Below, one piece after another: positions 26,242 through 42,558 of a DNA stretch of 64,000 bases. The stretch comes from Bythopirellula sp. (GTDB taxonomy: Bacteria > Planctomycetota > Planctomycetia > Pirellulales > Lacipirellulaceae), in NCBI GenBank assembly GCA_965216565.1, contig OZ244170.1:1536001-1600000 (forward strand), read 5' to 3'. A program made the translations under genes and the position numbers. Each line of letters starts with the position of its first letter. Position 1 is the stretch's first letter. The notes under the pieces were generated by a model. The model saw nothing but the letters and a program-made list of their open reading frames with translations, was not told the origin of the DNA and did no database searches.

Positions 26242-27185
26242 TGCACGCGCCCCTCCGTGACATGCAGAAACACGTCTTCCAGGCTCTTGTTCTCACTGGC
26301 AAATTCCAAAACGGCGAAGCCAGCCTGGACAATCTCACTAAGCAGCTCCGCCTGTTGCTCAGGCCCCCCATCGTGGGTCAGCATCACACGCTGACCATCG
26401 ACTAAGACGTCTCTGACATCCTCCCTTTCGGCAAACCAATTCAGCAGAGGCTCGCATTCGCCGAGCAGTCGCAGGCTGACGCGGCTAAATGTTTCGCTAC
26501 GCTTGCTAATCTCTTCCACAGTGCCCACGGCAAGTAGTTGCCCCGTTTCTATAATGGCAACCTTGTCGCAGATCTCTGCCAGCTCGGTAAGAATGTGGGA
26601 GCTAATCAGCACTGCCTTGCCTAACTCCGCTAGCTGCGAAATCATATCGCGCAATTCGATGCGAGCGCGTGGATCGAGCCCCGCGGCTGGCTCGTCGAGA
26701 ATTAGCACTGCGGGATTGTGAATCATGGTTCGACCCAGACTCAGCCGCTGCTTCATCCCCTTGGATAGCCCATTCACCGGCTTCTTCGCCAAGGCATCGA
26801 GTCCCGTGAACTCCATCACCATGTCAATCGCCTGCTGACGCTCGGTGCCCCACAGACCGTATGCACGGGCGAAGAAATCCAGATACTCCGTCACGTCGAC
26901 ATTTTCATAGGTCCCAAAATAGTCTGGCATAAAGCCCAGTCGTTTACGCACGCGGTCGGGATCATCGACAACCGAGAAACCATCGACAAAGGCATCCCCG
27001 TACGTCGGTTCATCGAGGGTCGCTAGTATTCGCATACTCGTGGTCTTACCCGCTCCGTTCGGGCCGATGTAGCCGAATACTTCCCCAGCGTGGACCTGGA
27101 AACTCATATCGTAGACGGCACGAGTGTCGCCAAAATAACGGTGCAAATTGCGGAGCTCAATCAGTGGTCGGGCAGCGTCAATCAT
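26238..27185 (-). CDS. ABC transporter ATP-binding protein
   Basis: Motifs [28 protein letters not shown] and ISSHIL. Confidence 0.95.
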   Translation of the reverse strand: MIDAARPLIELRNLHRYFGDTRAVYDMSFQVHAGEVFGYIGPNGAGKTTSMRILATLDEPTYGDAFVDGFSVVDDPDRVRKRLGFMPDYFGTYENVDVTEYLDFFARAYGLWGTERQQAIDMVMEFTGLDALAKKPVNGLSKGMKQRLSLGRTMIHNPAVLILDEPAAGLDPRARIELRDMISQLAELGKAVLISSHILTELAEICDKVAIIETGQLLAVGTVEEISKRSETFSRVSLRLLGECEPLLNWFAEREDVRDVLVDGQRVMLTHDGGPEQQAELLSEIVQAGFAVLEFASENKSLEDVFLHVTEGRVQ

Positions 27186-29265
27186 ATTGCCAGACTCCCT
27201 TCACCACATGAAAACTGTGGTTCTCCTGGACGGATTCGAGTCCCAACTCGACTTCTATCCCTGTCGCGGTGATGGCAACATAAGTTTGCTTGGCCCATTC
27301 CTTCGAGGTCAAAGTTCCGATCGCCTTGATTTGGGTTTCTAAGAGACCTTGGTCAAGTCGCAGTTGATTGTCCGTGCGACGTCCGCGGATGTCGCCCCCC
27401 GCAGGGAAGATGGGCTCGTTCTCTAGGAACTGCTCGCGAATGACCTTCGATACGTCAGAACAACCTGTTGGATTCAACATCATCGAGGCTCCGTCCTTGA
27501 AGCCAGTGGCAAGATAGTACTGGCCCGCTTCGTCTCGAATTGCCAAATAGAGACATTCAACGCCCAGATTGTTGGTCACTTTGAGTTGCTCTTCGTTCTT
27601 AGAAATACGCAGACGATTCTCAGTGGCGCGAGCAGTAATGGACAAGTATTGCGTGGGAGTCCGCGATGGCAGCCATCCTTCAGTAAAACGGGCCTCGGGC
27701 TCGTCCAATTCCACCTCTCGCCACTGATTGGCGTAGCGTCGTATCGTACGGCGATTCGTGGAAGCCGGCAAAATCGGATAAACGGCCGTATCATTTGGCA
27801 CCGAAAGCCCCTCCGACGGAGCGACACCGGCGTAGTACGAAAGTCTCGCCCAGCTGGAAGCTTCACTAGCTGGCTGATCGAGAAACGTAAAGCTTCGAGC
27901 ACGAACGCGCGTGCCGACGCCCTCGGAGAGAAACCCATAAGCAAAGAGCAGGAACGTCGTCGCCAACGCTGCCGCGGGAACCGTGGCCAGGAGCATCGGT
28001 ATTTTGCCGCTCCGCTTCAGCAGCCAATAGTTCAGCGGACCAATGCCAAGCACAAAAAGAGTAATCAAAAACTGAAACTCAAAGACAGGGGCCAAACCGA
28101 CATCGGGAATCAGGAAATTATTAAAATCCAAGTTGGAGTTCGCAGGGTCGTTGCCATGCCGCCTGGGCCAATACAGCCGCTCGGAGAGCATCGACATATC
28201 GATTTGTCCCTGCACATCGTAATCGAAGTGTCCCTTGAATAGCGTTACCGTCCCTAACCCATACGACCGTGAAATAAAGAATTCGAAAGAGTCTTGGTCA
28301 TCGCTTCTGCCAACCTCGATACCGCCAATGTTCGTTGGTTTGATTCCCCCGTCCGTGTCCGACGTTAATCGGAGCAAGGCATCGATGCCACGTGTTTCGG
28401 CACCTTCTAGCGGCAAGGCTTGCCATCGTACACGAGAGTCTTGGACTTCTTTCAGACCGAGTTGTTGGTTAATCATCGAAAGAGCTTCGTAGCTGTCGCT
28501 TCCTGCAACGAACCATAGATTGCCACCAGCACGAACCCAACGCAGCAACGCACGTTTGCTGTCCGGGTAACTACTGCCCAAAGCCTGTAGTTCCTTGGGA
28601 GTCAACACGGCCACATCAGCTGTCGAGAGCTCAGTCCACCTAGTCGGGAATTCCTCCAGAAGCACCTCATCGATTCGCTCGGAGTTGAGATACTTAGTCC
28701 TTGCACGGGACCAGTTTCGCTTTATCCCAACCGGCAGGCCAACGGCAGATATCAAGTAATTGTTTGCTGAGTGGCTGAACGTCGCATCTCGAAAACTCAA
28801 CTCTTCGTCTTTCACGCCATCGACCCATACCTCCCAATCGATCCTGTCCCAATGCAAAAACTGGGGAACGGTTAGATTTGCTGAAGCAGCTGATGTCCCT
28901 TGCTGCAGCTCAAAATCTTTCTCCACTGAGATCGAGGTGGAACGGTTATAGCCAGATCGCGCAGAAAATCGAAAAGTGATCTGCCGATCTGCTGGGACCG
29001 GAGTCGCGGCAGAAACCGTAACGCCCACGCGACGAAACCCGCGCTCGCCAACACCTCTTGTATCAACCTCAATCTTCAATCCAGATTTCGTTGAAAAACC
29101 AGGATTAGCATTATTCACAGGTCGACCTGCGCCAGGCACATTCCGCGGGAAAGGCCAGATGTTCTTGTCGCCAGTTCCCGCGCTGGCAAATGAGAGATCG
29201 AATAAAGCAAAGCAGAAACACAGTCCTACGACTGCCAGGGTATCTTTCCACTTTCGAATCTGCAT
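27178..29265 (-). CDS. Exported/membrane hypothetical protein associated with the ABC module
   Basis: Signal peptide, WVRAGG, YGLG.V and two internal TM helices (LFVLGIGPLNY). It overlaps the ATPase start. Confidence 0.7.
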   Translation of the reverse strand: MQIRKWKDTLAVVGLCFCFALFDLSFASAGTGDKNIWPFPRNVPGAGRPVNNANPGFSTKSGLKIEVDTRGVGERGFRRVGVTVSAATPVPADRQITFRFSARSGYNRSTSISVEKDFELQQGTSAASANLTVPQFLHWDRIDWEVWVDGVKDEELSFRDATFSHSANNYLISAVGLPVGIKRNWSRARTKYLNSERIDEVLLEEFPTRWTELSTADVAVLTPKELQALGSSYPDSKRALLRWVRAGGNLWFVAGSDSYEALSMINQQLGLKEVQDSRVRWQALPLEGAETRGIDALLRLTSDTDGGIKPTNIGGIEVGRSDDQDSFEFFISRSYGLGTVTLFKGHFDYDVQGQIDMSMLSERLYWPRRHGNDPANSNLDFNNFLIPDVGLAPVFEFQFLITLFVLGIGPLNYWLLKRSGKIPMLLATVPAAALATTFLLFAYGFLSEGVGTRVRARSFTFLDQPASEASSWARLSYYAGVAPSEGLSVPNDTAVYPILPASTNRRTIRRYANQWREVELDEPEARFTEGWLPSRTPTQYLSITARATENRLRISKNEEQLKVTNNLGVECLYLAIRDEAGQYYLATGFKDGASMMLNPTGCSDVSKVIREQFLENEPIFPAGGDIRGRRTDNQLRLDQGLLETQIKAIGTLTSKEWAKQTYVAITATGIEVELGLESVQENHSFHVVKGVWQYD

Positions 29266-29302
29266 CTAAACTCTCAGGTCAGTAAATTGCAAAGGGCAAG
29301 AA

Positions 29303-29599
29303 CTATTCTGACTGTCCACCTGTCTCAACTTGCTCGACCTGTTCGTCCGGGCTCCTTTGAATGCCTCCCTGACTTGTCAGAGCCGGCACCTGTTGAGGGC
29401 TGATGACTCGCGCAAGAAGGCCAATGATTCCGTAGAACACAGCATGAACGAAAAGACATACAGGGATACTTGCGACGGCAATCGTTACACCTGCCGCCCA
29501 AGCTTTACCTTGGAACGCTTGTCCAGCGACGACAAAAATGACCGTACTCACGGAAAGCAAAGTCAAAATCGTCTTCAGGGAAAATCTCGGCAACAGCAT
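29303..29599 (-). CDS. Small membrane hypothetical protein
   Basis: PRFSLKTIL N-terminus and two hydrophobic helices. It is co-oriented with the ABC operon. Confidence 0.65.
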   Translation of the reverse strand: MLLPRFSLKTILTLLSVSTVIFVVAGQAFQGKAWAAGVTIAVASIPVCLFVHAVFYGIIGLLARVISPQQVPALTSQGGIQRSPDEQVEQVETGGQSE

Positions 29600-29740
29600 A
29601 GTCGTTTTTAGTGGAAAAAGGACGATTCAAATAGCGATCGAAAGGGCCAGCACTGTCCCGGTAAGTGCCCGCCCGGTAGGATGACAACGTCAATTTGGAC
29701 TAACTATTTATATCGATCCTGACTCAAACAATTCGTTGCC

Positions 29741-32416
29741 ATGTTTTATTCTCGACTTCATGATACCAAATCTTTCGCTCTCCGTGCCATTCGTGCGATC
29801 TTGCCAATTCTTGCCATTTCTTTGGTAAGTAGCGAACACACATGCGCTGCCCCACAGGTGGAGGCCGTGGCCGGTGAGCCCTTTGGCGTGGGCAAAGTCA
29901 CAATCGACGTCCTCCGCGGCGAACCCTCCATTCCACTCAGCGACGAGCGTTTCACCATTTGGCAAGAGGCCAGCAGAGCCATGTACCCCGTGGTCAAGCA
30001 AGAGCCAGCTAAACGACTCCTTCGCAGGGTGCTCTCGATCGAGTCTCCCCGCAAGGTCACCGTCTATTTTCTGTTCCAAGGCAATGAGCCATTCGATCTG
30101 TCGGTGTTCTCGCCAATCGAACAGGCAGTGCGCATCCAGCCACAAATCAATCCAGAACGTCACCGCAATATGCTCAACGATTGGTGGCAAGCCTACTCAG
30201 GACGATGGAATACGCTCTGCTCCGACCCACAATTCCCACCCATGGCTGAGAATTTCCTGGTCGCATCATTAGGTCGGCGCCTAAACCTCGATTTGGCCGC
30301 TTCCGAACGCGGACTCTTGAAGAAGAAGCGAGGCAAGACCACGGCCCTAGGTGAACTATTTGCCAGCGAATCGCATTTACTGAAGCTCGATCGGGAGAAG
30401 ATTCTGAATCCTACGATACCCACCGAAGAGCGAGTACCGCTACCCGCCACTCCGGTGTGGGAAGATCTAGCCATCGACGACATGCAATTCGTGGACGTTG
30501 CGATTGAACCTATCGCAACACGCGTCCCTGAAGAGTGCTTTTATCTTCGCTTCGGCAAGTTTCTCAATTATCTTTGGTTTCGAGACCTAAGCGCAAAATG
30601 GCAAGGCGATTTGCAAAACATGGTTCTTCGCCGTGCCGTCGATCGCGCCGCCGATCAACGCACTCAGCAGCAACTGTCGCTCAAATACAACGCCATGGCG
30701 AAGATTCTTGGCCCACAGGTGGTGGAAGACCTGGCCATCGTTGGGCTCGATACGAACACAACGCAGGGCGCAGCGATCGGCGTTTTGATGCATGCCAAGA
30801 ACAACTTCTTGCTCAGCCAAGACATGATGCGACAACGTCGCCGGTCTCTTTCTACGTTCTCCGACGCCAAGGAAACGACAGTCAAGATCGCCGAACAAGA
30901 AGTATCGCTCATCGCAACACCCGGAGGAGAAGTCCGATCGTATTATGTGCAACAAGGCGATTTTCACCTAGTTTCGACTTCCGCTACCCTCGTGGAACGA
31001 TTTATTGAGGCAGGGCAGGGCGATCGTGCAATGGCCGCGCTCCCCAGTTTTCTACAAGCTAGAAAGCAATTGACCATCGCTCAGGACGACACAGTCTTTG
31101 TCTTCGTGCCGGAGAAGTTTTTCGAGAATCTCTGCTCGCCGCACTACTTTATCGAAAATGCACGTCGAATTAGCAGTGCTCGCGAGCCACTGCTCTTGGA
31201 ATTGGCTAGCCTGGCTGCCGAGACCGAGAATTCACTGGACGTCGACCTCATGACCAGTGGCATTCTGCCTGCCGGGTTTGGCACGCGCGTCGATGGCAGC
31301 CAGCTCGACGTTATTGACGATAAATTGACCGACTCTCGCCGGGGCACACCTGGATTCTTCGTTCCCATTGCCGACATGCAGGTGGAGGATGTTTCTCAGG
31401 AGGAAGCTTCCGCCTATCAAGATTTCATCACTCGTTTTCGATCCGAGATCGGACGAATGCCACCAGTGGCTGTCGCCGTGAAACGTCAACCCGTGGTAGG
31501 CGACCAAGTCACGATTTCATTCGACGCGTTGGTCCAACCAACGACTGGCACGAAGTTGGAGAACTTAAAAGAATATTTGGGCGAGGCATCCTCCCAACGC
31601 TTGCAGCCGGTGGAGGGAAATATCGCTTCGCTCGAGGCAGCGGTCAAAATGAAGCTTCCCTTCGGTGACGGCACCGAAAAGGCCTTTCATCTCTTCGGCG
31701 GCTTGCGGGACTATCTCTCGCCGCTGGCTGTCAAACAGGGCAAGCTCATGCCGGGCTCAGGCCTGACGGAACTTGTGCGGGGCTACGTCGGCGCTTGGCC
31801 GCGCCCTGGCCTTCTGGATTCACTACTGGGCGGTACCCAACCCGTTCCTGGAGAGCCACAGCGTGTGAACCAACCCTTGGTTGGTGATATTTGGCTCGAT
31901 AGCGAAGACGATTTGGCATTGATCTCCTTCAAGCCCGAGGTGATCGATCAGGTACGTCCACAGCTTGCCAAGACAGAAGCAGATCGGCCCGCACAGGTAT
32001 GGATGTCGATTGACGACCTCACCGGAAAACAGTTTGCCGGCACGGTAAGCGCCCTCGGCTATATGCGAGCCCGCGAAACTTCTGTAGCCGCCAGTCGGAT
32101 GATGAACTCCCTCGCCAACCAATTCCGCATCGGACGACCGGAGTGCCGCGACATTGCCGAGCGCCTCGTCGACGGGACTTTCGTCTGTCCCTTAGGCGGT
32201 GAGTATCAACTGCTTGCACCAGAACGTGATCTAGAAGTGTGGGCCTCGTCCGCGGTGACACCCGAAAATCGATTCTTGCTTACCGAAGTCCCCGAGGATT
32301 TTCAGCTGCCCCTCTTGCAATGGTTTCGTGGTGTGAACGGCGATTTGAGCTACGTGGAAGACGCACTTTCAATTCATCTCGAACTCAACTTGGCAGCCGA
32401 TTCGGTGCCCCAATGA
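29741..32416 (+). CDS. Large exported hypothetical protein
   Basis: 891-aa ORF with a signal-peptide-like N-terminus and no recognised catalytic motif. Confidence 0.75.
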   Translation: MFYSRLHDTKSFALRAIRAILPILAISLVSSEHTCAAPQVEAVAGEPFGVGKVTIDVLRGEPSIPLSDERFTIWQEASRAMYPVVKQEPAKRLLRRVLSIESPRKVTVYFLFQGNEPFDLSVFSPIEQAVRIQPQINPERHRNMLNDWWQAYSGRWNTLCSDPQFPPMAENFLVASLGRRLNLDLAASERGLLKKKRGKTTALGELFASESHLLKLDREKILNPTIPTEERVPLPATPVWEDLAIDDMQFVDVAIEPIATRVPEECFYLRFGKFLNYLWFRDLSAKWQGDLQNMVLRRAVDRAADQRTQQQLSLKYNAMAKILGPQVVEDLAIVGLDTNTTQGAAIGVLMHAKNNFLLSQDMMRQRRRSLSTFSDAKETTVKIAEQEVSLIATPGGEVRSYYVQQGDFHLVSTSATLVERFIEAGQGDRAMAALPSFLQARKQLTIAQDDTVFVFVPEKFFENLCSPHYFIENARRISSAREPLLLELASLAAETENSLDVDLMTSGILPAGFGTRVDGSQLDVIDDKLTDSRRGTPGFFVPIADMQVEDVSQEEASAYQDFITRFRSEIGRMPPVAVAVKRQPVVGDQVTISFDALVQPTTGTKLENLKEYLGEASSQRLQPVEGNIASLEAAVKMKLPFGDGTEKAFHLFGGLRDYLSPLAVKQGKLMPGSGLTELVRGYVGAWPRPGLLDSLLGGTQPVPGEPQRVNQPLVGDIWLDSEDDLALISFKPEVIDQVRPQLAKTEADRPAQVWMSIDDLTGKQFAGTVSALGYMRARETSVAASRMMNSLANQFRIGRPECRDIAERLVDGTFVCPLGGEYQLLAPERDLEVWASSAVTPENRFLLTEVPEDFQLPLLQWFRGVNGDLSYVEDALSIHLELNLAADSVPQ

Positions 32417-32895
32417 GCAAGCCGCCCCGTTACAGTAATCGCGATTTCCCGCCCTACACCTACGTCCCCGGCAAGCAACCGCACCCGATTAGCGACCCCC
32501 GCGGCCACATGCACGGGCACGAAGCCCCCGATCCGCCGCCACTAGATCCCGAGCAGTGGAACCAGTCCGCAAGCTACCTCTTCGCGGTCGACCTATTCAA
32601 CCACGGATTCTATTGGGAAGCCCACGAAGTTTGGGAGTCGCTCTGGATTGCCGCCGGCCGTGCGGGCATTCTGGCCGACTTTCTCAAAGGGCTCATCAAA
32701 CTCGCCGCGGCAGGAGTAAAGGAACTGGAGGGAAATCCCACGGGCATCGACCGCCATCGATCGCGAGCCCTTGAGCTCTTAAGCGATACCTCTGCAAATT
32801 CTCAGTCCTACGGTGGACTGCACTTGCCAGCACTCCTGACCCAAGTGCAAAGAAAACAAAAAATTTCTGAGATCGCCCTCACATTAGGCGAGTAA
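32413..32895 (+). CDS. DUF309 domain protein
   Basis: Motifs PPYTYVPG..PHP and LFNHGFYWEAHEVWESLW..LKGLI. ATGA overlap with the upstream gene. Confidence 0.85.
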   Translation: MSKPPRYSNRDFPPYTYVPGKQPHPISDPRGHMHGHEAPDPPPLDPEQWNQSASYLFAVDLFNHGFYWEAHEVWESLWIAAGRAGILADFLKGLIKLAAAGVKELEGNPTGIDRHRSRALELLSDTSANSQSYGGLHLPALLTQVQRKQKISEIALTLGE

Positions 32896-33114: not shown

Positions 33115-35181
33115 ATGAAGAAGAAACGTCGACAGCGGAAAAACAAGAACAAGAAACCGGCTCATGCGAAGATGGGAGCCGCTCAGAAGCCTGATGCCGA
33201 GGCTCGATCGGCCGCTGGAAAGAAGGGCCCTGGGTTAGTCATGTTTGCGGGACTGCTGGCCGTGGCACTCGCTATCGCTTTTTATGTGGTGCGCTCGTCT
33301 GAGACTCCACAAGAGACAGACGACCAGCAGGCTGTACTTGCTCCCAGCGAAATCGATTCCTCAGAGAAGGCGGCCCGAGTACCGCTCAGGCAGACTTCTT
33401 CCTGGACAGAGCTCGACGATCCTGCCAGCGATGGCTGGGATACCGAAGTGTTTGCTGAGAAAGCAAAAAAGCAGCTGGTAGCTCTTGGGAAAATAATGGT
33501 GGATGTCGAGGAGGTCGACGCAGCCGATGTGAAAAAACTTATCGCCAAGGAATTCGCTTGCGAACCACTACGGCCTGCTAATCTGGTTGCCGTCCACGAC
33601 GATCCCCACTTGAAGATCGAGCGTGCCCCCTCCTCGTCATCTGGCCTAAGTTCCCTGGACCAGTTGCCAGAATCGGAAGAGCAGAAGTATCACGGGGCCG
33701 ACGGACTTGTGCAAGCACTGCGCGATGCTGCGGCTTCCTTTGCAGAAGCCGAGGATTTGCGATTTGAAGTCAAGATATTTCGAGTCTTTCCCGCCCCGGG
33801 CAAAGTGACCACACGCCAGTACTTTTCCATTACTGGCCATACTGAGTCGGGTACATTGGAACAGCACGCAACCTGGGACATCGGTTGGGAAGTAGGGACA
33901 GGCAAATCAAAACCCCATCTCCAGTGGATCCGCGTAGAAGAATTCGAACAATCGGAAAGTCGCAATGCCGAGGAGACTCTTTTTGCCGACTGTACCGAGT
34001 CTGTTCTGGGTGGCAACGATTGCTACACGGAGCAGTTTTTGCGCGGCATGAACTATTGGTACGAGCGAATTCAAGACCGAAGTCCGTTCGGTTTGTTCGC
34101 AAACCCTGGGTTGGCGGTGGGAGATGTGAATGGTGACGGGCTGGACGACCTATACGTCTGTCAGGAGGCCGGTCTCCCGAATCGGCTGTTCGTCCAAAAT
34201 CCTGATGGCTCAGCAACCGATCAGTCGACCTCTTGGGGAGTCGATTGGCTGGAGTCATCTCGGAGCGCGCTCTTGGTCGATTTGGACAACGATTCCGACC
34301 AGGATTTGGTAGTGGCGATTCTTGGTGGAGTGGTCGTGGCTGAGAACAACGGACAAGGGCAATTTCAAATACGAGACGTACTGGCGACCTGCGACGACAC
34401 CATGTCTCTAACTGCGGTTGACTACGACATGGATGGCCGCCTCGATATCTATGTCTGTGCCTATCATCAGAACAAATCACTGGACTCCACTGAACTTACG
34501 GGCATGCCGGGTGCCGCGGAGGGTTTTGTTGTGCATGATGCGAACAATGGAGGAAATAACAGCCTCTTTCGCAATCTGATTTCTAAACAGGGTGAATGGC
34601 AGTTTGAAGACGTTACCAAAGAAGTTGGACTAGACGAGAAAAACTATCGCTGGAGTCTCGCCGCGGCTTGGGACGACTACGACAAGGACGGCGACCAAGA
34701 TCTTTACGTCGCCAACGACTACGGACGCGACCATTTCTATCGCAACGACCTTCTCGGTTCGTCCTCCTCCGATCAGGAACAGAATACGGGGCCGCAGTTC
34801 GTCGACATTTCCGATCTCGCCCACGTAGAAGACAGTGCCACGGGTATGTCGATTACCTGGGGCGATTACGATCGCGATGGATGGATGGACGCCTTGGTCA
34901 GCAATATGTGGTCCTCTGCCGGCCAGCGCGTAACATATCAAAACAATTTCAAGCCCGATGCACCGCAAGACATCAAAAATAGGTATCAACGTCAGGCTAG
35001 GGGCAACACGCTGCTGAAGAATCAAGGCGATGGAACCTTTAGCGACCTCAGCGGCCCAGCTGGAATAGAAATGGGACGCTGGGCTTGGGGTTCGCGGTTT
35101 GCGGATCTTAACAACGATGGCTGGGAAGACCTGTTTGTTTCGAACGGATACATCACGGCAGACGACACTGGGGACTTGTGA
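33115..35181 (+). CDS. FG-GAP/VCBS-repeat (CRTAC1-like) protein, N-terminal part; probably continues through the in-frame TGA to 37707
   Basis: Basic tail plus a TM anchor. Repeats GDVNGDGLDD, DLDNDSDQD, DYDMDGRLD, DYDKDGDQD, DYDRDGWMD and DLNNDGWED. It ends mid-propeller at DDTGDL-TGA. Confidence 0.85.
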   Translation: MKKKRRQRKNKNKKPAHAKMGAAQKPDAEARSAAGKKGPGLVMFAGLLAVALAIAFYVVRSSETPQETDDQQAVLAPSEIDSSEKAARVPLRQTSSWTELDDPASDGWDTEVFAEKAKKQLVALGKIMVDVEEVDAADVKKLIAKEFACEPLRPANLVAVHDDPHLKIERAPSSSSGLSSLDQLPESEEQKYHGADGLVQALRDAAASFAEAEDLRFEVKIFRVFPAPGKVTTRQYFSITGHTESGTLEQHATWDIGWEVGTGKSKPHLQWIRVEEFEQSESRNAEETLFADCTESVLGGNDCYTEQFLRGMNYWYERIQDRSPFGLFANPGLAVGDVNGDGLDDLYVCQEAGLPNRLFVQNPDGSATDQSTSWGVDWLESSRSALLVDLDNDSDQDLVVAILGGVVVAENNGQGQFQIRDVLATCDDTMSLTAVDYDMDGRLDIYVCAYHQNKSLDSTELTGMPGAAEGFVVHDANNGGNNSLFRNLISKQGEWQFEDVTKEVGLDEKNYRWSLAAAWDDYDKDGDQDLYVANDYGRDHFYRNDLLGSSSSDQEQNTGPQFVDISDLAHVEDSATGMSITWGDYDRDGWMDALVSNMWSSAGQRVTYQNNFKPDAPQDIKNRYQRQARGNTLLKNQGDGTFSDLSGPAGIEMGRWAWGSRFADLNNDGWEDLFVSNGYITADDTGDL

Positions 35182-35219
35182 AGTTTCTGGTGGCGGCAGG
35201 TCGTGTCGCATGGAATCAC
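35179..35219 (+). promoter_or_regulatory. In-frame UGA plus candidate bacterial SECIS hairpin
   Basis: TGA, then 11 nt, then stem GCGGCA/TGTCGC around loop GGTCG. The lower stem TTCTG/TGGAA and GTGA/TCAC can extend it. Confidence 0.65.
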
Positions 35220-37707
35220 GGATAGCGAAGCGAGTGCCACCGATGCGCTTGAGCACGCTGGGACTGCGCTGACAAACATGATGAGAGGGGGTCGCTCCTT
35301 TAGCGGAAACGAGCGGCACTGTTGTTTTCTCAACACGGGCGGAGAGCCGAACGCGGAGGGACGTTTCGCAAACATCTCCGCGGTCAGCGGTCTTGACTAT
35401 CCCGACGATGGTCGGGCGGTGGCTTTAGTTGATTGGGATCACGATGGCAGACAGGACATGTGGATTTCTAATCGCAATGCCCCTCGTCTCCGACTCATGC
35501 GTAACGAAGTGCCAGGCGAGAATCATTTCCTGGCGCTTCGTCTGGAAGGCAATGGAACAGACACCAATCGCGATGGCATCGGAGCTCGAGTAGAAATCAT
35601 TCTAAGACAAGTTGACGTAGCCGCTCCTGAATCACAGGCGGGCAAGCAGAAACCACAAGTTAAGACTCTGCGTGCCGGAGAAGGGTTGTTAGCCCAATCA
35701 AGCAAATGGCTGCACTTTGGCTTGGGGCAGGCTGACACCATCGAAAGTGTGACCGTCTATTGGCCGGGCGGCGAAGCCGAGCAATTTATCGGTTTCGAAG
35801 CTGACCATCGGTACCGGCTCGTCCAAGGTTCGGCCACAGCTCAGGACGCAGCAATGCCTGCTCGCGCGACTAAGCTTGAACGTTCCAACCAAAATGTTCC
35901 CCCCGCGTCGCAGGTTGCCCGAATTCGGATGGTGCAGTTGTTGACGGTACCGGAATCTCCCTATCAAAGCTTCGATGGACGGCGACGCAAACTCCCGACT
36001 AAGCAAGGAGAATTGCTACTGGTAAACCTGTGGGCCAGTTGGTGCCGCCCCTGTTTAGCTGAACTCACCGAGTTTTCTAATCGCTACGAAGAGCTACAGA
36101 ACGAGGGAATCGAGGTTCTTGCGCTTACGGTCGAAGGTCTTAAGGGAGAAAAAGAAGCAGCCAAGCAAGCGGCAAACCTCGCCGCCAACCGAAAGTTTCC
36201 GTTTCTGGTGGGACAGGCAAGCTCAACATTACTCGCAGATTTCAATTACCTCCATAGTCTTCAGATTCCACTGCTTCGAGAACTGCCGCTGCCATGTAGT
36301 TTCCTGATTGATCGAGAAGGTCGTTTAGCTGCAATCTACAAAGGCCCCGTGTCGGTTGATGCATTACTGGAAGACACTTCCTACAGTAAAGACAGTCGAG
36401 CCGAACGACAATTGCGGTCCGCTTCCATGGCCGGCCAATCGATTCAGCACCCACTCGTAGAACAAGTAGAAGACAATTCAGGCGTGTCGCTTCGTTTTCT
36501 GCTCGCAGAGTATCTTCAACATTCCGGACGCAACGACCAGGCGGCCCAGCAATACGCGGACGTGATTAAGCTCAAGCCCGACAACTCGGGTGCCCATAAT
36601 AACTTGGGTAGCACCCTCTTAGAGCTTGGAAAAGTTGAAGAAGCCGTTAAACATCTTCGGCGTGCCCTCGAACTCAATCCCGAACACCCAGGAGCCCACA
36701 GCAACCTGGCAAACGCGTTACAACGCCAAGGGAAGTCGGAAGACGCAATCGAGCATTTACAACAAGCAATAGAGGACGATCCCGATTTCGCGCAGGCTCA
36801 CTACAACCTGGGAAACACACTCTTGCTACAAGGAAAGGCCGAAGAAGCTTCTCCGCATTACGAGCGAGCCCTTGAGATCGACCCAGACTACGCCCATGCC
36901 CACAGCAATCTGGGGATCGCTTTGCAGCGTCAGGGCAAGATTGAAGAAGCTATCGAACACTATCGGCGTGCACTGCAGATCGAACCAGATTACGCGGACG
37001 CGCATTACAACCTGGGAATTGTTCTCCGAGGTCAGGGGAATACCTCAGAAGCGATCAAACATTACCAACAAGTCGTAAGGATCAAACCCAATTACGCTCA
37101 GGCACACAACAACTTAGGGAACGCAATCCAAGCGGAAGGGAAACTTGAAGAATCCATCACGCATTACCAACGTGCCATTCGGATCAAACCCGATTTCGCC
37201 GAAGCTTATAACAACCTGGGCAATGCGCTACTGGGGCAAAAGAAGATCGCAGAGGCGATCAAGTGCTATCAACAAGCTCTAAAGATCCAACCCAGCTACC
37301 CACAAGCGCACACCAGTCTAGCAGTCGCGTATCAAGCTCGCGGTGATGTCCCCAAAGCTATCCAGCACTACAAGCAAGCGCTCGTTCTAAATCGGGACAA
37401 CCCCATGGCTCTGAACAACCTGGCATGGATTCTGGCAACACATTCAGATTCCAAATTACGCAATGGCTCTCAGGCCGTCATGCTAGCCGAGTATTGTTGT
37501 GGACTGGAGGGACTGCGGGTGTTTGCTACGCTCGACACGCTGTCCGCCGCTTACGCAGAGGCAGGCCGTTTTGAAGAAGCAGTTGAAGCCGCCACCGAGG
37601 CGATCGAAGGAGCAACCGCCGCAGGAAACGAAGAAGTAGCCCAAGCGCTTCGCAAGCGATTAGAGCTGTACCGTCAGGGCACTCCCTATCGAGAACCGAA
37701 GAAATGA
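35203..37707 (+). CDS. Last FG-GAP blade + ASPIC/UnbV + TlpA-like thioredoxin (WCRPC) + TPR array; C-terminal part of the same frame as 33115
   Basis: DWDHDGRQD, NHFLALRLEG..NRDGIGARV, LHFGLG..V.WPGG, VNLWASWCRPC and about nine 34-aa TPRs (AHNNLG/AHYNLG). No signal peptide of its own. Confidence 0.85.
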   Translation: MSHGITDSEASATDALEHAGTALTNMMRGGRSFSGNERHCCFLNTGGEPNAEGRFANISAVSGLDYPDDGRAVALVDWDHDGRQDMWISNRNAPRLRLMRNEVPGENHFLALRLEGNGTDTNRDGIGARVEIILRQVDVAAPESQAGKQKPQVKTLRAGEGLLAQSSKWLHFGLGQADTIESVTVYWPGGEAEQFIGFEADHRYRLVQGSATAQDAAMPARATKLERSNQNVPPASQVARIRMVQLLTVPESPYQSFDGRRRKLPTKQGELLLVNLWASWCRPCLAELTEFSNRYEELQNEGIEVLALTVEGLKGEKEAAKQAANLAANRKFPFLVGQASSTLLADFNYLHSLQIPLLRELPLPCSFLIDREGRLAAIYKGPVSVDALLEDTSYSKDSRAERQLRSASMAGQSIQHPLVEQVEDNSGVSLRFLLAEYLQHSGRNDQAAQQYADVIKLKPDNSGAHNNLGSTLLELGKVEEAVKHLRRALELNPEHPGAHSNLANALQRQGKSEDAIEHLQQAIEDDPDFAQAHYNLGNTLLLQGKAEEASPHYERALEIDPDYAHAHSNLGIALQRQGKIEEAIEHYRRALQIEPDYADAHYNLGIVLRGQGNTSEAIKHYQQVVRIKPNYAQAHNNLGNAIQAEGKLEESITHYQRAIRIKPDFAEAYNNLGNALLGQKKIAEAIKCYQQALKIQPSYPQAHTSLAVAYQARGDVPKAIQHYKQALVLNRDNPMALNNLAWILATHSDSKLRNGSQAVMLAEYCCGLEGLRVFATLDTLSAAYAEAGRFEEAVEAATEAIEGATAAGNEEVAQALRKRLELYRQGTPYREPKK

Positions 37708-38416: not shown

Positions 38417-40111
38417 ATGGCAACAAGCATAGAGAACAATCCTTTCTTGGACCAATTCGCAGACCTGAGCTCATTACCAGGTTTTCAACCGCAAGGACTT
38501 TGTCACTTCGACAAGGACCATCGGATCGTGGTGATGAACCGGCAATTTCAAACGCTGTACGGGTTACCCGAGAGTCTGCTCAAGCCGGGCACACATCGGG
38601 ATGAAGTCATCTCAGCAATTGAAGATGCCACCTTGCGTGATTTACTGACGGACGTAACGTCCAACCCATGCGGATTCGGATCGACGAATCGGGTTTGGCA
38701 AACTGAACAAGGACGGCTGATTGCCGTCTCTTGCGAACTCTTGCCCGATGGCAGTTACACAACCTTGCATGAAGACATCACCACGTCGAATCAAGAGAAT
38801 GCGAAATACGCTAGACTTGCGACTCATGACCCTTTGACAGGATTACTCAACCGCCAGGCGTTTGACGATGAATTGCAACGGGTGCTTTCGCAAAACGAGA
38901 GCATGAAAGAACATGCCCTGCTGTACATCGACCTCGACCGATTCAAAATAGTTAACGACACTCTCGGTCACCCCATCGGCGATCAAGCACTGATAGCGAT
39001 TACCGAGCGGATTCGAAATGTCATCCGGTCTGAAGACAAGCTTGCCCGACTGGGGGGCGATGAGTTTGCGTTGCTGCAGGTGGAGGCGCAACAACCAGAT
39101 GCATCACGCTCTGCTGCCCGCCGGATTATTGATACCGTCGCTCAACCTCTCTCAATCAGTGGACACTCCGTGAATCTCGGTGCCAGCGTGGGCATAGCTA
39201 TCGCCCCCTTCGACGCTGATAACGCAGAGCTGCTGCTGCAGAATGCCGACCTGGCTCTCTACCGCGCGAAGCACGATGGCCGCAACACATTGCGTTACTT
39301 CGAGCCAGAAATGAGCAGACGTCTAGTCTTACGGAGAAAACTGGAATGCGAGCTTCGTTCGGCAATTGAGGCGGGTCAGTTCGAAATGCTCTACCAGCCC
39401 GTAATGAACCTTAACTCGCAGACAATCGAGTGCGTGGAAGGGCTCGTTCGGTGGCAGCATCCCGAGCTAGGGCTCGTCTCGCCCGACGACTTCATACCTC
39501 TCGCTGAAGAGACTGGCTTAATCAATCCACTCGGTGAATGGGTTCTCCGGCAAGTTTGTCGAGAAGCCGCTGAATGGGACGAAGGGATTCGCGTAGCGGT
39601 TAATGTATCTCCTGTCCAGCTTCGTTGTCGGATGTTTGCGTCGACTGTACAGAACATTCTCCAGGAAACGGGACTCGATCCTTCGCGCCTCGAAGTGGAG
39701 ATTACCGAAACAGCGCTGGTGGCAGATATAGAATTGACGATCGCAATCCTTACGGAGTTGCGTCAATTCGGAGTAAAAGTCGCCATGGACGATTTTGGCA
39801 CGGGCTACTCCTCGATCAGCTATTTGCGACGCTTTCCGTTCGACAAAATTAAGATCGACCGATCTTTTGTTTCCGGAGTAGATGCCGATCCCGAAGCTGC
39901 TGCTCTGATAAAGATGATCGCTGCTTTGGGGGTAAGCCTGGCGGTCTCGACAACCGCCGAAGGTGTCGAAACAGATTCCGAATTGGATTTGGTTCGTCAA
40001 GCAGGTTGCACCCACATCCAGGGGTATCATCTAAGCAAACCTGTCAACGCGGGAGCAATCGTCGCTCTCCTGGAATCAAACAAAGATGACAAGACTTACT
40101 TGGGAGAATAA
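38417..40111 (+). CDS. PAS-like + GGDEF + EAL bifunctional c-di-GMP enzyme
   Basis: Motifs HEDIT, HDPLTGLLNR, DLDRFK, RLGGDEF, YQP, EGLVRW, AVNVS, EVEITE, DDFGTGYSS, KIDRSF, AEGVET and QGY. Confidence 0.95.
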   Translation: MATSIENNPFLDQFADLSSLPGFQPQGLCHFDKDHRIVVMNRQFQTLYGLPESLLKPGTHRDEVISAIEDATLRDLLTDVTSNPCGFGSTNRVWQTEQGRLIAVSCELLPDGSYTTLHEDITTSNQENAKYARLATHDPLTGLLNRQAFDDELQRVLSQNESMKEHALLYIDLDRFKIVNDTLGHPIGDQALIAITERIRNVIRSEDKLARLGGDEFALLQVEAQQPDASRSAARRIIDTVAQPLSISGHSVNLGASVGIAIAPFDADNAELLLQNADLALYRAKHDGRNTLRYFEPEMSRRLVLRRKLECELRSAIEAGQFEMLYQPVMNLNSQTIECVEGLVRWQHPELGLVSPDDFIPLAEETGLINPLGEWVLRQVCREAAEWDEGIRVAVNVSPVQLRCRMFASTVQNILQETGLDPSRLEVEITETALVADIELTIAILTELRQFGVKVAMDDFGTGYSSISYLRRFPFDKIKIDRSFVSGVDADPEAAALIKMIAALGVSLAVSTTAEGVETDSELDLVRQAGCTHIQGYHLSKPVNAGAIVALLESNKDDKTYLGE

Positions 40112-40114
40112 CAA

Positions 40115-40534
40115 ATGTTTCGACGATTACTTTACACCAGCCATGCGGCAGAAGGCGTGGATTCAAGACAGGTCTTCGATATCATACGAACATCCCACAA
40201 TCGCAATAGCCGTGCTGGTCTGACTGGAGGCCTACTATTCGTGGACGGCTATTTCTATCAGTTGTTGGAAGGACTGCGGGGCGCTGTCGAGCAAAGGTAC
40301 GATCGAATTGCGGCGGACCCAAGGCACCACAGTGTTGAGCTGCGTCTCGACGAGACGGCTGACGAGCCGATCTTCGCCAATGACTGGATGGCACTTCGCG
40401 ATGCTTCTCAAATCGACGATTCGATTCTAGCCCATTTTGGTTGTTCACCAGGGTCGCCACCCGAAGCCATGCAAGACGACCAAGTGTTTGAGTTCTTGCT
40501 CACCTGCTTTGAGAAGGAAATAGTTCATTGCTGA
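40115..40534 (+). CDS. Stand-alone BLUF (blue-light FAD) photoreceptor
   Basis: Motifs LLYTS, N..AGLTGGL, FYQLLEG, I.ADPRH and F..DWM. It starts 3 nt after the GGDEF-EAL stop. Confidence 0.9.
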   Translation: MFRRLLYTSHAAEGVDSRQVFDIIRTSHNRNSRAGLTGGLLFVDGYFYQLLEGLRGAVEQRYDRIAADPRHHSVELRLDETADEPIFANDWMALRDASQIDDSILAHFGCSPGSPPEAMQDDQVFEFLLTCFEKEIVHC

Positions 40535-40667: not shown

Positions 40668-41600
40668 TTACGAGTTATGGCTTGTCGCTGCTTCCTGCAT
40701 CAACTGCCCCGCGCGGTACGAGCTGCGGACGAGGGGTCCTGCGGCGACGCCGCCGAAGCCCATCGCGCGGGCTTCGCTTTCCCACTCGGCAAATTGGTCG
40801 GGGTGCACGTAGCGATCGACCGGCAAGAATCGCGTTCCCGGTTTTCCCGGGGCGAGGTATTGGCCGAGCGTTAAGAGTTCCACGCCGGCGTCGCGCAACA
40901 GCCGCATGGCTGAGACCACTTCCTCATCGGTTTCGCCCAGGCCGACCATAATACTGCTTTTGGTCCACATGTCGGGACGCAACCGTTTGGCGCGCTGCAG
41001 AACTTCCAAGCTTTGTGCAAAGGAAGCCTTGGGATCTCGGACAAGGGAATCGAGTCGCGGAACGCACTCCACGTTGTGGGCAAAAACGGCGAGTGGAACT
41101 CCGTCGAGAAGATGTGCCAATGCCTCCCAATTGCCATCCAGGTCGCTGGAGAGCAGCTCCACGTCGGTGTTCGGGAGTCGATTTTTGACTGCCACCACGC
41201 ACTTCCTGTAGTGATCGGCACCACCATCGTCCAGGTCATCGCGATTTACTACCGTGATCACCACATGCTCTAGCTCCATCCGCTCTACGGCGTCGGCCAG
41301 TCTTTCCGGCTCGTCGACTTCAAGTGGCGGCGGTTGTCGCAGGGTTTCGACCGAACAGAATCGGCAGCCGCGGGTACATTCCTTGCCCGCCACCATAAAC
41401 GTGGCCGTCCCTCGTGCCCAGCAGTCGTGAATGTTGGGGCAGCGAGCCTCTTCGCACACGGTGTGTAGCTCGTTGCCGAGCACGGTAAGCTGCGTGCTAT
41501 TGAAGGTACCCTGCGCACGCCCCGTCGGCAGGTTCACGCGCAGCCATTCGGGCAGACGTGGACGGGAAAAGACGATTTCAAGCGGCGGGCTGTTTTCCAT
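40668..41600 (-). CDS. lipA: Lipoyl synthase
   Basis: CEEARCPNIHDC (CX4CX5C), CTRGCRFC radical SAM motif and PLVRSSY. Confidence 0.95.
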   Translation of the reverse strand: MENSPPLEIVFSRPRLPEWLRVNLPTGRAQGTFNSTQLTVLGNELHTVCEEARCPNIHDCWARGTATFMVAGKECTRGCRFCSVETLRQPPPLEVDEPERLADAVERMELEHVVITVVNRDDLDDGGADHYRKCVVAVKNRLPNTDVELLSSDLDGNWEALAHLLDGVPLAVFAHNVECVPRLDSLVRDPKASFAQSLEVLQRAKRLRPDMWTKSSIMVGLGETDEEVVSAMRLLRDAGVELLTLGQYLAPGKPGTRFLPVDRYVHPDQFAEWESEARAMGFGGVAAGPLVRSSYRAGQLMQEAATSHNS

Positions 41601-41607
41601 CAGACTA

Positions 41608-41636
41608 ATTCTACGCTTAGCCTGTCAAACCTTCAA
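41608..41636 (-). promoter_or_regulatory. Sigma70-like promoter for lipA (possibly leaderless)
   Basis: Minus strand reads TTGAAG-17 bp-TAGAAT, and TAGAAT ends 7 nt before the ATG. Confidence 0.5.
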
Positions 41637-42558
41637 ACAGTGGCGTTGAGAGATAACGTTCACCCAGGCTGCACATGATGGTGACAATCCGCTTGCCAGC
41701 CATCTCGGGTCGAGCCGCCACTTTGGCTGCGGCACACATGTTCGCCCCACTGCTGATGCCGCCGAGGATGCCCTCTTCGCTCGCCAATCGTCGGGCCCAT
41801 TGGAAAGCTTCCTCGTTACTGACAGTGACCGTTTCGTCAACGATCGAGGTATCCAAGTTGCCGGGAATAAATCCAGCGCCGATGCCCTGAATTTTGTGCG
41901 GGCCAGGTTCTCCGCCACTGATGACCGGTGAATCGACCGGCTCGACAGCAATCGCTTTGAACTCTGGATTCTTTGATTTCAAGAATCGAGAAGCTCCTGT
42001 AATGGTGCCACCGGTGCCGACGCCGGCAATAATCGCATCGATCTTTTGTCCGGAGTCTTCCCAAATTTCAGGACCGGTGGTCGCTTCGTGGATTGCCGGG
42101 TTGGCTGGGTTCTCGAATTGCTGGGGCATCCAAGCGTTCTTGCCGGTTTCCACCAACTCGGTCGCTTTGGAAATGGCACCTTTCATGCCCTTGGCGGCGG
42201 GTGTCAAAACGATCTCCGCACCGAGAATTCGCAATAGGGCACGACGCTCTAGAGACATCGATTCTGGCATCGTCAATGTCAGCTTGTAGCCCTTGGCCGC
42301 ACAGACAAACGCCAAGGCGATCCCCGTATTGCCACTGGTGGGCTCGATGATGTGCGTGTCGGCGTTCACCTTGCCATCTTTCTCCCCCGCGGCGATCATT
42401 GCGGCGCCGATACGATCTTTCACGCTATTCAGCGGATTGAAAAACTCGCACTTGGCAAAAACGGTTGCGTGGCCTTCGGGGACCAGACGGTTAATCTGAA
42501 TCATGGGCGTATCGCCGACGGCTGCTGCTGCGTGCTCAAAAGTTTTGTTGCGGGGCAT
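41617..42558 (-). CDS. cysK: Cysteine synthase A
   Basis: Motifs SVKDR (PLP Lys), EPTSGNTG, QQFEN, GVGTGGT, HKIQGIGAGF and GERYLST. Confidence 0.95.
   Translation of the reverse strand: MPRNKTFEHAAAAVGDTPMIQINRLVPEGHATVFAKCEFFNPLNSVKDRIGAAMIAAGEKDGKVNADTHIIEPTSGNTGIALAFVCAAKGYKLTLTMPESMSLERRALLRILGAEIVLTPAAKGMKGAISKATELVETGKNAWMPQQFENPANPAIHEATTGPEIWEDSGQKIDAIIAGVGTGGTITGASRFLKSKNPEFKAIAVEPVDSPVISGGEPGPHKIQGIGAGFIPGNLDTSIVDETVTVSNEEAFQWARRLASEEGILGGISSGANMCAAAKVAARPEMAGKRIVTIMCSLGERYLSTPLFEGLTG

Follow-up and report, generated by a model that had tools for sequence, protein, structure and literature searches.

In the passages of PMC8659212 that define it, the minimal SECIS element of Escherichia coli fdhF is a 17-nt stem-loop that occupies nucleotides 15-31, counted from the U of the UGA codon, lies 11 nt from that codon and includes U17, G23 and U24. 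The bSECIS model, as given in the legend to Figure 2A of a 2026 review (PMC13188914), allows a loop of 3-9 nt on a stem of 4-16 bp, with a G in the first two loop positions, a distance of 16-37 nt from the UGA and an MFE of -7.5 or below. The locus analysed here carries a hairpin of this general kind inside an open reading frame, just 3' of an in-frame UGA. Its elements are as follows, with positions counted in the window, i.e. the whole 64,000-nt stretch of Bythopirellula sp. DNA that was analysed:

35176-35178, + strand: Leu codon TTG directly before the UGA, synonymously constrained (103/115 Leu copies)
35179-35181, + strand: in-frame TGA, the inferred selenocysteine (Sec) codon U689 (172 of 192 homologous sites are TGA)
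35182-35192, + strand: 11-nt spacer, its first codon constrained to AGY
35193-35198, + strand: SECIS 5' arm GCGGCA (folding, conservation, covariation)
35199-35203, + strand: SECIS apical loop GGUCG (loop G/U conserved in TGA copies)
35204-35209, + strand: SECIS 3' arm TGTCGC (folding, conservation, covariation)

The coordinates given in the preliminary description for a SECIS-like hairpin 11 nt past the UGA were confirmed, as were its 6-bp stem with one G.U pair (35196/35206) and its loop, which opens on GGU and begins 17 nt after the UGA. RNAfold predicts that this hairpin forms, at -8.7 kcal/mol, and with 5 nt in the loop and GG at its start the RNA agrees with all four constraints of the bSECIS legend, showing no difference from that model. 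Compared with the minimal fdhF element, the hairpin occupies the same nucleotides 15-31 after the same 11-nt spacer (PMC8659212, same passages), and the comparison drawn earlier holds on the real fdhF sequence, in which the GCAGGUC apex common to both RNAs starts at +16 rather than at +15 as here. The present hairpin differs from the fdhF SECIS in lacking the bulged U17, its 6-bp stem being uninterrupted below a 5-nt loop, in having the loop G and U one base nearer to the UGA, in showing no conserved long lower stem at the register proposed previously, and in the additional constraint seen at codons -1 and +1. By analogy, it is a hairpin that would work like the fdhF SECIS rather than a copy of it, and it falls outside a strict fdhF-type definition, which asks for the bulged U17.

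Taken alone, this copy is barely above chance, and one hairpin proves little: 4 of 200 shuffles of a 23-nt piece fold equally well (z -2.31), and pieces of 47-91 nt are not better than their shuffles (z -1.67 to +0.70). The shared GCAGGTC heptamer is indeed present, but it occurs 10 times in the window versus 9.1 expected and is by itself not evidence. A SECIS-like fold follows 29/357 TGA, 27/374 TAA and 54/414 TAG candidate junctions genome-wide (approximately 7-13%) by a filter that is a crude approximation, and Rfam at gathering thresholds gives no match within the window. Results of this kind would be expected if the TGA were a true stop, separating two genes or interrupting a decayed one, and the hairpin were either a chance fold or a consequence of the conserved RQVVS peptide; TGA is moreover an ordinary stop here, ending 447 of the 1576 ORFs of 400 or more codons, and the truncated 688-residue product is the version present in public collections. 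This reading nevertheless appears most improbable in view of the homologues. The same stop-codon count rules out a genome-wide reassignment of TGA.

Homologous loci were gathered from a phylum search (29 loci plus 60 hand-picked regions) and from the best 80 of 557 GTDB hits. At the 192 aligned sites, TGA is found in 172 cases, Cys in 8, Glu in 5, Asp in 2 and Arg in 2, with 3 gaps; all remaining rows without a stop are among the 60 picked regions, such that sense copies are over-represented in these figures. TAA, TAG and Trp do not occur at any of the 192 sites, where a true stop would be expected to drift to TAA or TAG. Ahead of the first codon at which translation could restart after the TGA, residues S690, W693 and R694 show 95-100% conservation across 81 rows, as would not be anticipated if translation ended at the TGA, and 335 uninterrupted full-length homologues were found in the protein database. 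The TGA is also present in complete assemblies from public runs (X1 and X4 may derive from the source sample). The stretch is unchanged in two public runs of a single sample, which may be the source, and a relative that differs at 11 of 1106 bases covers the TGA site with none of the differences listed at the site. The three paralogues of this genome share both the position of the TGA and the 17-nt hairpin, which is identical in all of them. A sequencing error or assembly artefact is ruled out by the paralogues, the conserved TGA in homologues and the public-run assemblies, and a frameshift or restart across the site by the closure of the other two frames within about 60 nt past it and by the conserved residues preceding the first restart codon.

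The preliminary description had cautioned that the hairpin overlaps the RQVVS codons, so that protein constraint might account for it. This was assessed at 177 sites, remaining after removal of 3 gap rows and 12 duplicates, by resampling synonymous codons according to each gene's own usage. Among the 160 distinct TGA copies, 109 have all six base pairs, where protein constraint predicts 4.8, and 152 have a bSECIS-like fold versus 48.5 expected, the fold being scored by an approximation of the bSECIS model. The sense-codon copies show no such excess: the 9 copies with Asp, Glu or Arg have all six pairs in 1 case (1.2 expected) and the bSECIS-like fold in 5 (4.1 expected), and the corresponding counts for the 8 Cys copies are 0 (0.0 expected) and 1 (0.3 expected). 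The caveat is thus not borne out, and the hairpin is more conserved in TGA copies than in sense-codon copies, the comparison on which its interpretation as a Sec signal had been staked. In 44 TGA copies fewer than five of the six pairs are present, and most of these, from divergent clades, fold a hairpin in a shifted register. The loop bases are more uniform, with G at +19 in 156/160 and U at +20 in 154/160 distinct TGA copies.

Support also comes from compensatory change. In 116 same-register rows, 98.3% of the stem cells are paired, a percentage inflated by the hand selection of these rows for register, and two-sided changes occur in 39 cells versus 7.5 in shuffled alignments, a number reached in 0 of 500 shuffles; one stem pair is seen as GU, AU, CG, GC, UG and UA across the 116 rows. 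The proposed downward extensions of the stem fared differently. The T35191-A35210 pair and the TTCTG/TGGAA helix can form in the present copy, but across the 116 homologues the corresponding positions are paired in 47.8% of cases versus 47.4% after shuffling, and a long lower stem is rejected as a family feature; the closing GTGA/TCAC stem recurs at this copy's register (+35) in just 1 of 160 TGA copies. For a subset of the family, pairing of the UGA with a UCA at +31 to +33 is more frequent than expected (30 of 70 Ser copies have TCA, versus 5 expected), a register that the present copy does not use.

Codon choice around the site is skewed from codon -1 to codon +11, with the dominant codons near expectation at -12 to -2 and at +12 to +15. 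Within the hairpin, Ser+9 is TCG in 83 copies (24 expected) and Val+8 is GTG in 104 (45 expected). Outside it, 103 of the 115 copies with Leu at -1 use TTG (17 expected), sense-codon copies with Leu there using CTC or CTG, and 123 of the 129 copies with Ser at +1 use AGY (45 expected). The upper stem does not account for the constraint on these two codons. The stretch 35173-35210 is an island of DNA conservation across the UGA and the hairpin; these 38 nt alone recruit contigs of unrelated organisms at 85% likeness. The base at +1 is A in 138 of 160 TGA copies, and UGA followed by A is leaky in E. coli. Together with the constrained AGY and TTG codons, this context would suit a selenium-independent programmed readthrough, in which hairpin and UGA-A delay termination and a standard residue is delivered by a near-cognate tRNA (Trp or Cys). 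Such a process is very unlikely, given that Trp occurs at none of the 192 genomic sites and at none of the sites in the best 120 of the 335 uninterrupted proteins, that the codon is never TAA or TAG, and that the conserved loop G/U lie at the position read by SelB. Decoding as Sec is also favoured over readthrough by the tight association of TGA copies with the genes for Sec synthesis and insertion, which in this genome (G000) are represented by the first of the following loci:

G000:C1 683702-689622: selA, selB, selD fused to a pyridine nucleotide-disulphide oxidoreductase domain, and tRNA-Sec, in one cluster
G000:C1 1243248 (-) and 4509442 (+): two TGA-bearing paralogues with identical hairpin
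L188:481-1107 (G000:C1 about 1636980-1637606): Prx-like lipoprotein gene, UxxC from an in-frame TGA, 7-bp hairpin with GUU loop

The selA, selB and selD genes score above their cut-offs, the adjoining tRNA-Sec has the anticodon UCA, and SelB has the C-terminal winged-helix domain. Of 300 other genomes of the phylum that were searched, 66 match the gene and 59 carry a TGA copy; 15 of the match rows are without a stop, and all others have exactly one, which is always TGA. Among the 59, selA is present in 56 and at least one of selA, selB and tRNA-Sec in 58, compared with selA in 164 of the 241 genomes lacking a TGA copy (220/300 overall). For 60 closer relatives, selA or tRNA-Sec is found in 20/20 TGA-bearing genomes, and a TGA copy in 0/29 of the genomes with neither. 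Within the genus, selA is present in 9/9 TGA-bearing genomes and the gene is matched in 0/13 selA-negative genomes (Fisher p 4.6e-4, overstated because kin are not independent). The exception, and a point in favour of readthrough, is a genome that is 90% complete (G228) and contains a TGA copy, yet in which none of selA, selB, selD and tRNA-Sec was found; the hairpin of that copy (L131, G228:C36) is strong, and a Cys lies two residues downstream. In another genome (G142), where no Sec genes were found, there are Cys copies only. Low-scoring selA-like genes unaccompanied by tRNA-Sec occur in G190 (also without selB and selD), G327, G329, G330, G331 and G335 and are probably orphan SelA homologues.

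The Prx-like UxxC gene, whose hairpin resembles the present one, likely encodes an ordinary selenoprotein of known type and is another likely client of the Sec machinery. A Sec-type formate dehydrogenase was not found in this genome, and the three family genes are therefore among the few identifiable clients of its machinery. Two ad hoc scans of the genome for further selenoproteins were crude, the first missing all three family genes and the second the Prx-like gene.

Considering the conservation in excess of protein constraint, confined to TGA homologues, the compensatory changes and the co-occurrence with the Sec machinery, the earlier interpretation of the hairpin as a selenocysteine signal is supported, and there is little doubt that it is a real bacterial SECIS, marking an apparently uncatalogued and widespread selenoprotein family. 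In the mechanism envisaged, the hairpin acts as an in-ORF SECIS in the frame of UGA 35179; SelB loaded with Sec-tRNA(Sec) would bind the G/U-bearing apical loop 11 nt past the UGA, and this complex would outcompete termination, converting the UGA into Sec689 of a single 1530-residue protein. Binding by SelB and insertion of Sec, extrapolated from the established biology of SelB, would be expected with equally little doubt, and the explanation as a whole, SECIS decoding of UGA 35179 as Sec689, is highly likely. The ribosome is thus very probably made by the hairpin to read a 'stop' as Sec, which fuses two annotated genes into one large predicted exported protein with the following features:

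33115..37707, + strand: full reading frame, 1530 codons with TGA 35179 read as Sec (U689)
33115-35181, + strand: upstream called ORF, 688 aa
35203-37707, + strand: downstream called ORF, 834 aa
33235..33291, + strand: lone hydrophobic segment, residues 41-59, behind a K/R-rich N-terminus (hydropathy)
34102..35514, + strand: FG-GAP beta-propeller, limits approximate (Pfam FG-GAP_3/FG-GAP, structure model)
35575..35814, + strand: ASPIC/UnbV domain (PF07593, E 1.1e-14)
35965..36333, + strand: TlpA/ResA-like thioredoxin domain (PF00578, AhpC/TSA; ResA/TlpA fold matches)
36043-36054, + strand: CxxC of the thioredoxin domain (C977, C980), in WASWCRPC
36577..37446, + strand: TPR array, limits approximate (domain search)

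Past TGA 35179 the frame stays open for 841 more codons. Hydropathy peaks at 2.7 at residue 41, and beyond residue 80 no other 19-residue window exceeds 1.6; the hydrophobic segment is a probable membrane anchor, with a predicted N-in topology. A structure model of residues 104-1089, calculated with Cys in place of Sec, has a pLDDT of 93.5 and a pTM of 0.94, and in it both halves around the TGA fold as a single CRTAC1-like core. Its top fold match is murine CRTAC1 (9etn_A; 16% identity, E 8.8e-27, TM 0.73 over the target), with ResA and TlpA next in rank. The TGA lies within the propeller, the last repeat of which is encoded downstream of it, and a helix begins at the recoded site (model residue 586). 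As in CRTAC1, an FG-GAP propeller is followed by an ASPIC/UnbV domain, which places the protein in that family; in contrast to CRTAC1, it adds an N-terminal anchor and alpha/beta domain, a Sec-bearing helical insertion, the TlpA-like CxxC domain and the TPR array. Thioredoxin-fold selenoproteins (Prx-like UxxC, UGC-containing TlpA, and NF041054 with WAxxUGC) likewise combine Sec with a thioredoxin-fold domain, but in the present protein the CxxC of the thioredoxin contains no Sec, which is instead located in the propeller, about 290 residues upstream; the NF041054 model reaches 90.8-99.5 bits, versus a cut-off of 300. The decoding mechanism is the standard SelB/SECIS one, and it is the host fold that is unusual.

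The invariant residues outside the propeller repeats (N597, M598, S600, R605, W656, W658, D687, W693, R694, E733 and R767) suggest a pocket on one face of the propeller. The CxxC of the fused thioredoxin is kept in 128 of the 129 TGA copies that possess the domain, compared with 0 of 5 Asp/Glu copies and 6 of 117 non-Cys full-length proteins (among the best 120 of 335). This loss of the CxxC from most non-Cys sense homologues suggests a relay between Sec and thioredoxin, with the qualification that the co-loss represents few independent events, 111 of the 117 non-Cys proteins belonging to one clade and the Asp/Glu copies reflecting approximately 2-3 changes, as counted from FastTree trees, which flag long-branch joins. 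The thioredoxin domain is absent from 20 of 149 complete TGA copies, and in seven TGA copies that lack the CxxC domain a Cys follows the Sec at a distance of 2 or 5 residues. One copy (L032) retains TGA and hairpin and has lost both thioredoxin Cys residues. From these patterns a redox role of the Sec appears plausible. Put more specifically, there is slightly better than an even chance that an inner-membrane anchor holds the protein facing outward, that Sec689, at the start of its helix amid invariant CRTAC1-like propeller loop residues, is a redox-active nucleophile, and that it is re-reduced by the fused TlpA-like CxxC.

A competing view of the residue, compatible with the SECIS and at odds with the redox role only, is that of a selenium-dependent switch, in which UGA and SECIS set the balance between the full-length and the truncated 688-residue form and the selenol has no chemistry to perform. 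In the best 120 of the 335 full-length homologues the site is occupied by S (33), A (31), N (31), G (13), Q (5), C (3), E (2), D (1) and H (1), i.e. 117 of 120 are non-Cys and tolerate other residues; Cys forms do exist (8/192 genomic sites, 3/120 proteins), including a close full-length homologue with 56% identity and a CxxC (P0003), and their rarity speaks for a switch. This pattern of sense homologues is unlike the usual Sec/Cys pairing. A switch is nonetheless unlikely: the loss of the CxxC in most non-Cys forms fits the loss of a chemistry, the seven copies without the CxxC domain have a Cys near the Sec, and the truncated form would miss the last propeller repeat.

Members of the family are also carried by GTDB records labelled Verrucomicrobiota and Acidobacteriota. 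One genome (G345) has 16 copies, and in three genomes tandem arrays (L137, L138 and L169, family f86) hold 4-5 TGA-bearing paralogues within 16-20 kb. At another locus (L108) the codon is absent in frame and the hairpin sequence is retained.

The family is absent from all 119 families of Table 1 of the 2026 review, where the families of Haft and Tolstoy (2025) appear as rows, and six family terms gave no hits in the text of that review (PMC13188914), nor were hits obtained in text passages and one supplement of BSepDB (PMC13326102), or in the text and four supplements of deep-Sep (PMC12013277); passages of PMC4807772 and PMC3174227 do not mention it. NCBIfam has no model for the propeller/ASPIC region, with nothing better than E 0.0067. 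The literature sources searched yielded no report of Sec in the CRTAC1/ASPIC-UnbV family and none of a biochemical function for this fold.

Tentatively, and at somewhat less than even probability, the protein may typify a large class of exported beta-propeller selenoenzymes, often present in multiple copies, that bring their own thioredoxin reductant, have a Sec centre outside the listed Sec folds and are missed by Cys/Sec-pair screens because most sense homologues would be dead S/A/N/G forms. If so, the family, which is common (a TGA copy in 59 of 300 sampled phylum genomes), may be one of the main causes for the retention of the Sec machinery in planctomycetes that have no Sec formate dehydrogenase, and the Sec would mark the first candidate active site for the CRTAC1/ASPIC-UnbV fold, making its function directly testable. 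Gene callers split the gene in two, and selenoproteome counts for these phyla are consequently probably too low, with both halves misannotated.

As regards the surroundings of the gene, the upstream region at 27178-32895 of the window contains a DUF309 gene and two long ORFs, of 695 and 891 aa, that match nothing in Pfam. Just downstream, at 38417-40534, a PAS-GGDEF-EAL gene is followed by a BLUF-domain gene, likely a light-controlled c-di-GMP pair, and the ORFs at 40668-42558 are, by their sequence motifs, putative lipoyl synthase and cysteine synthase genes.
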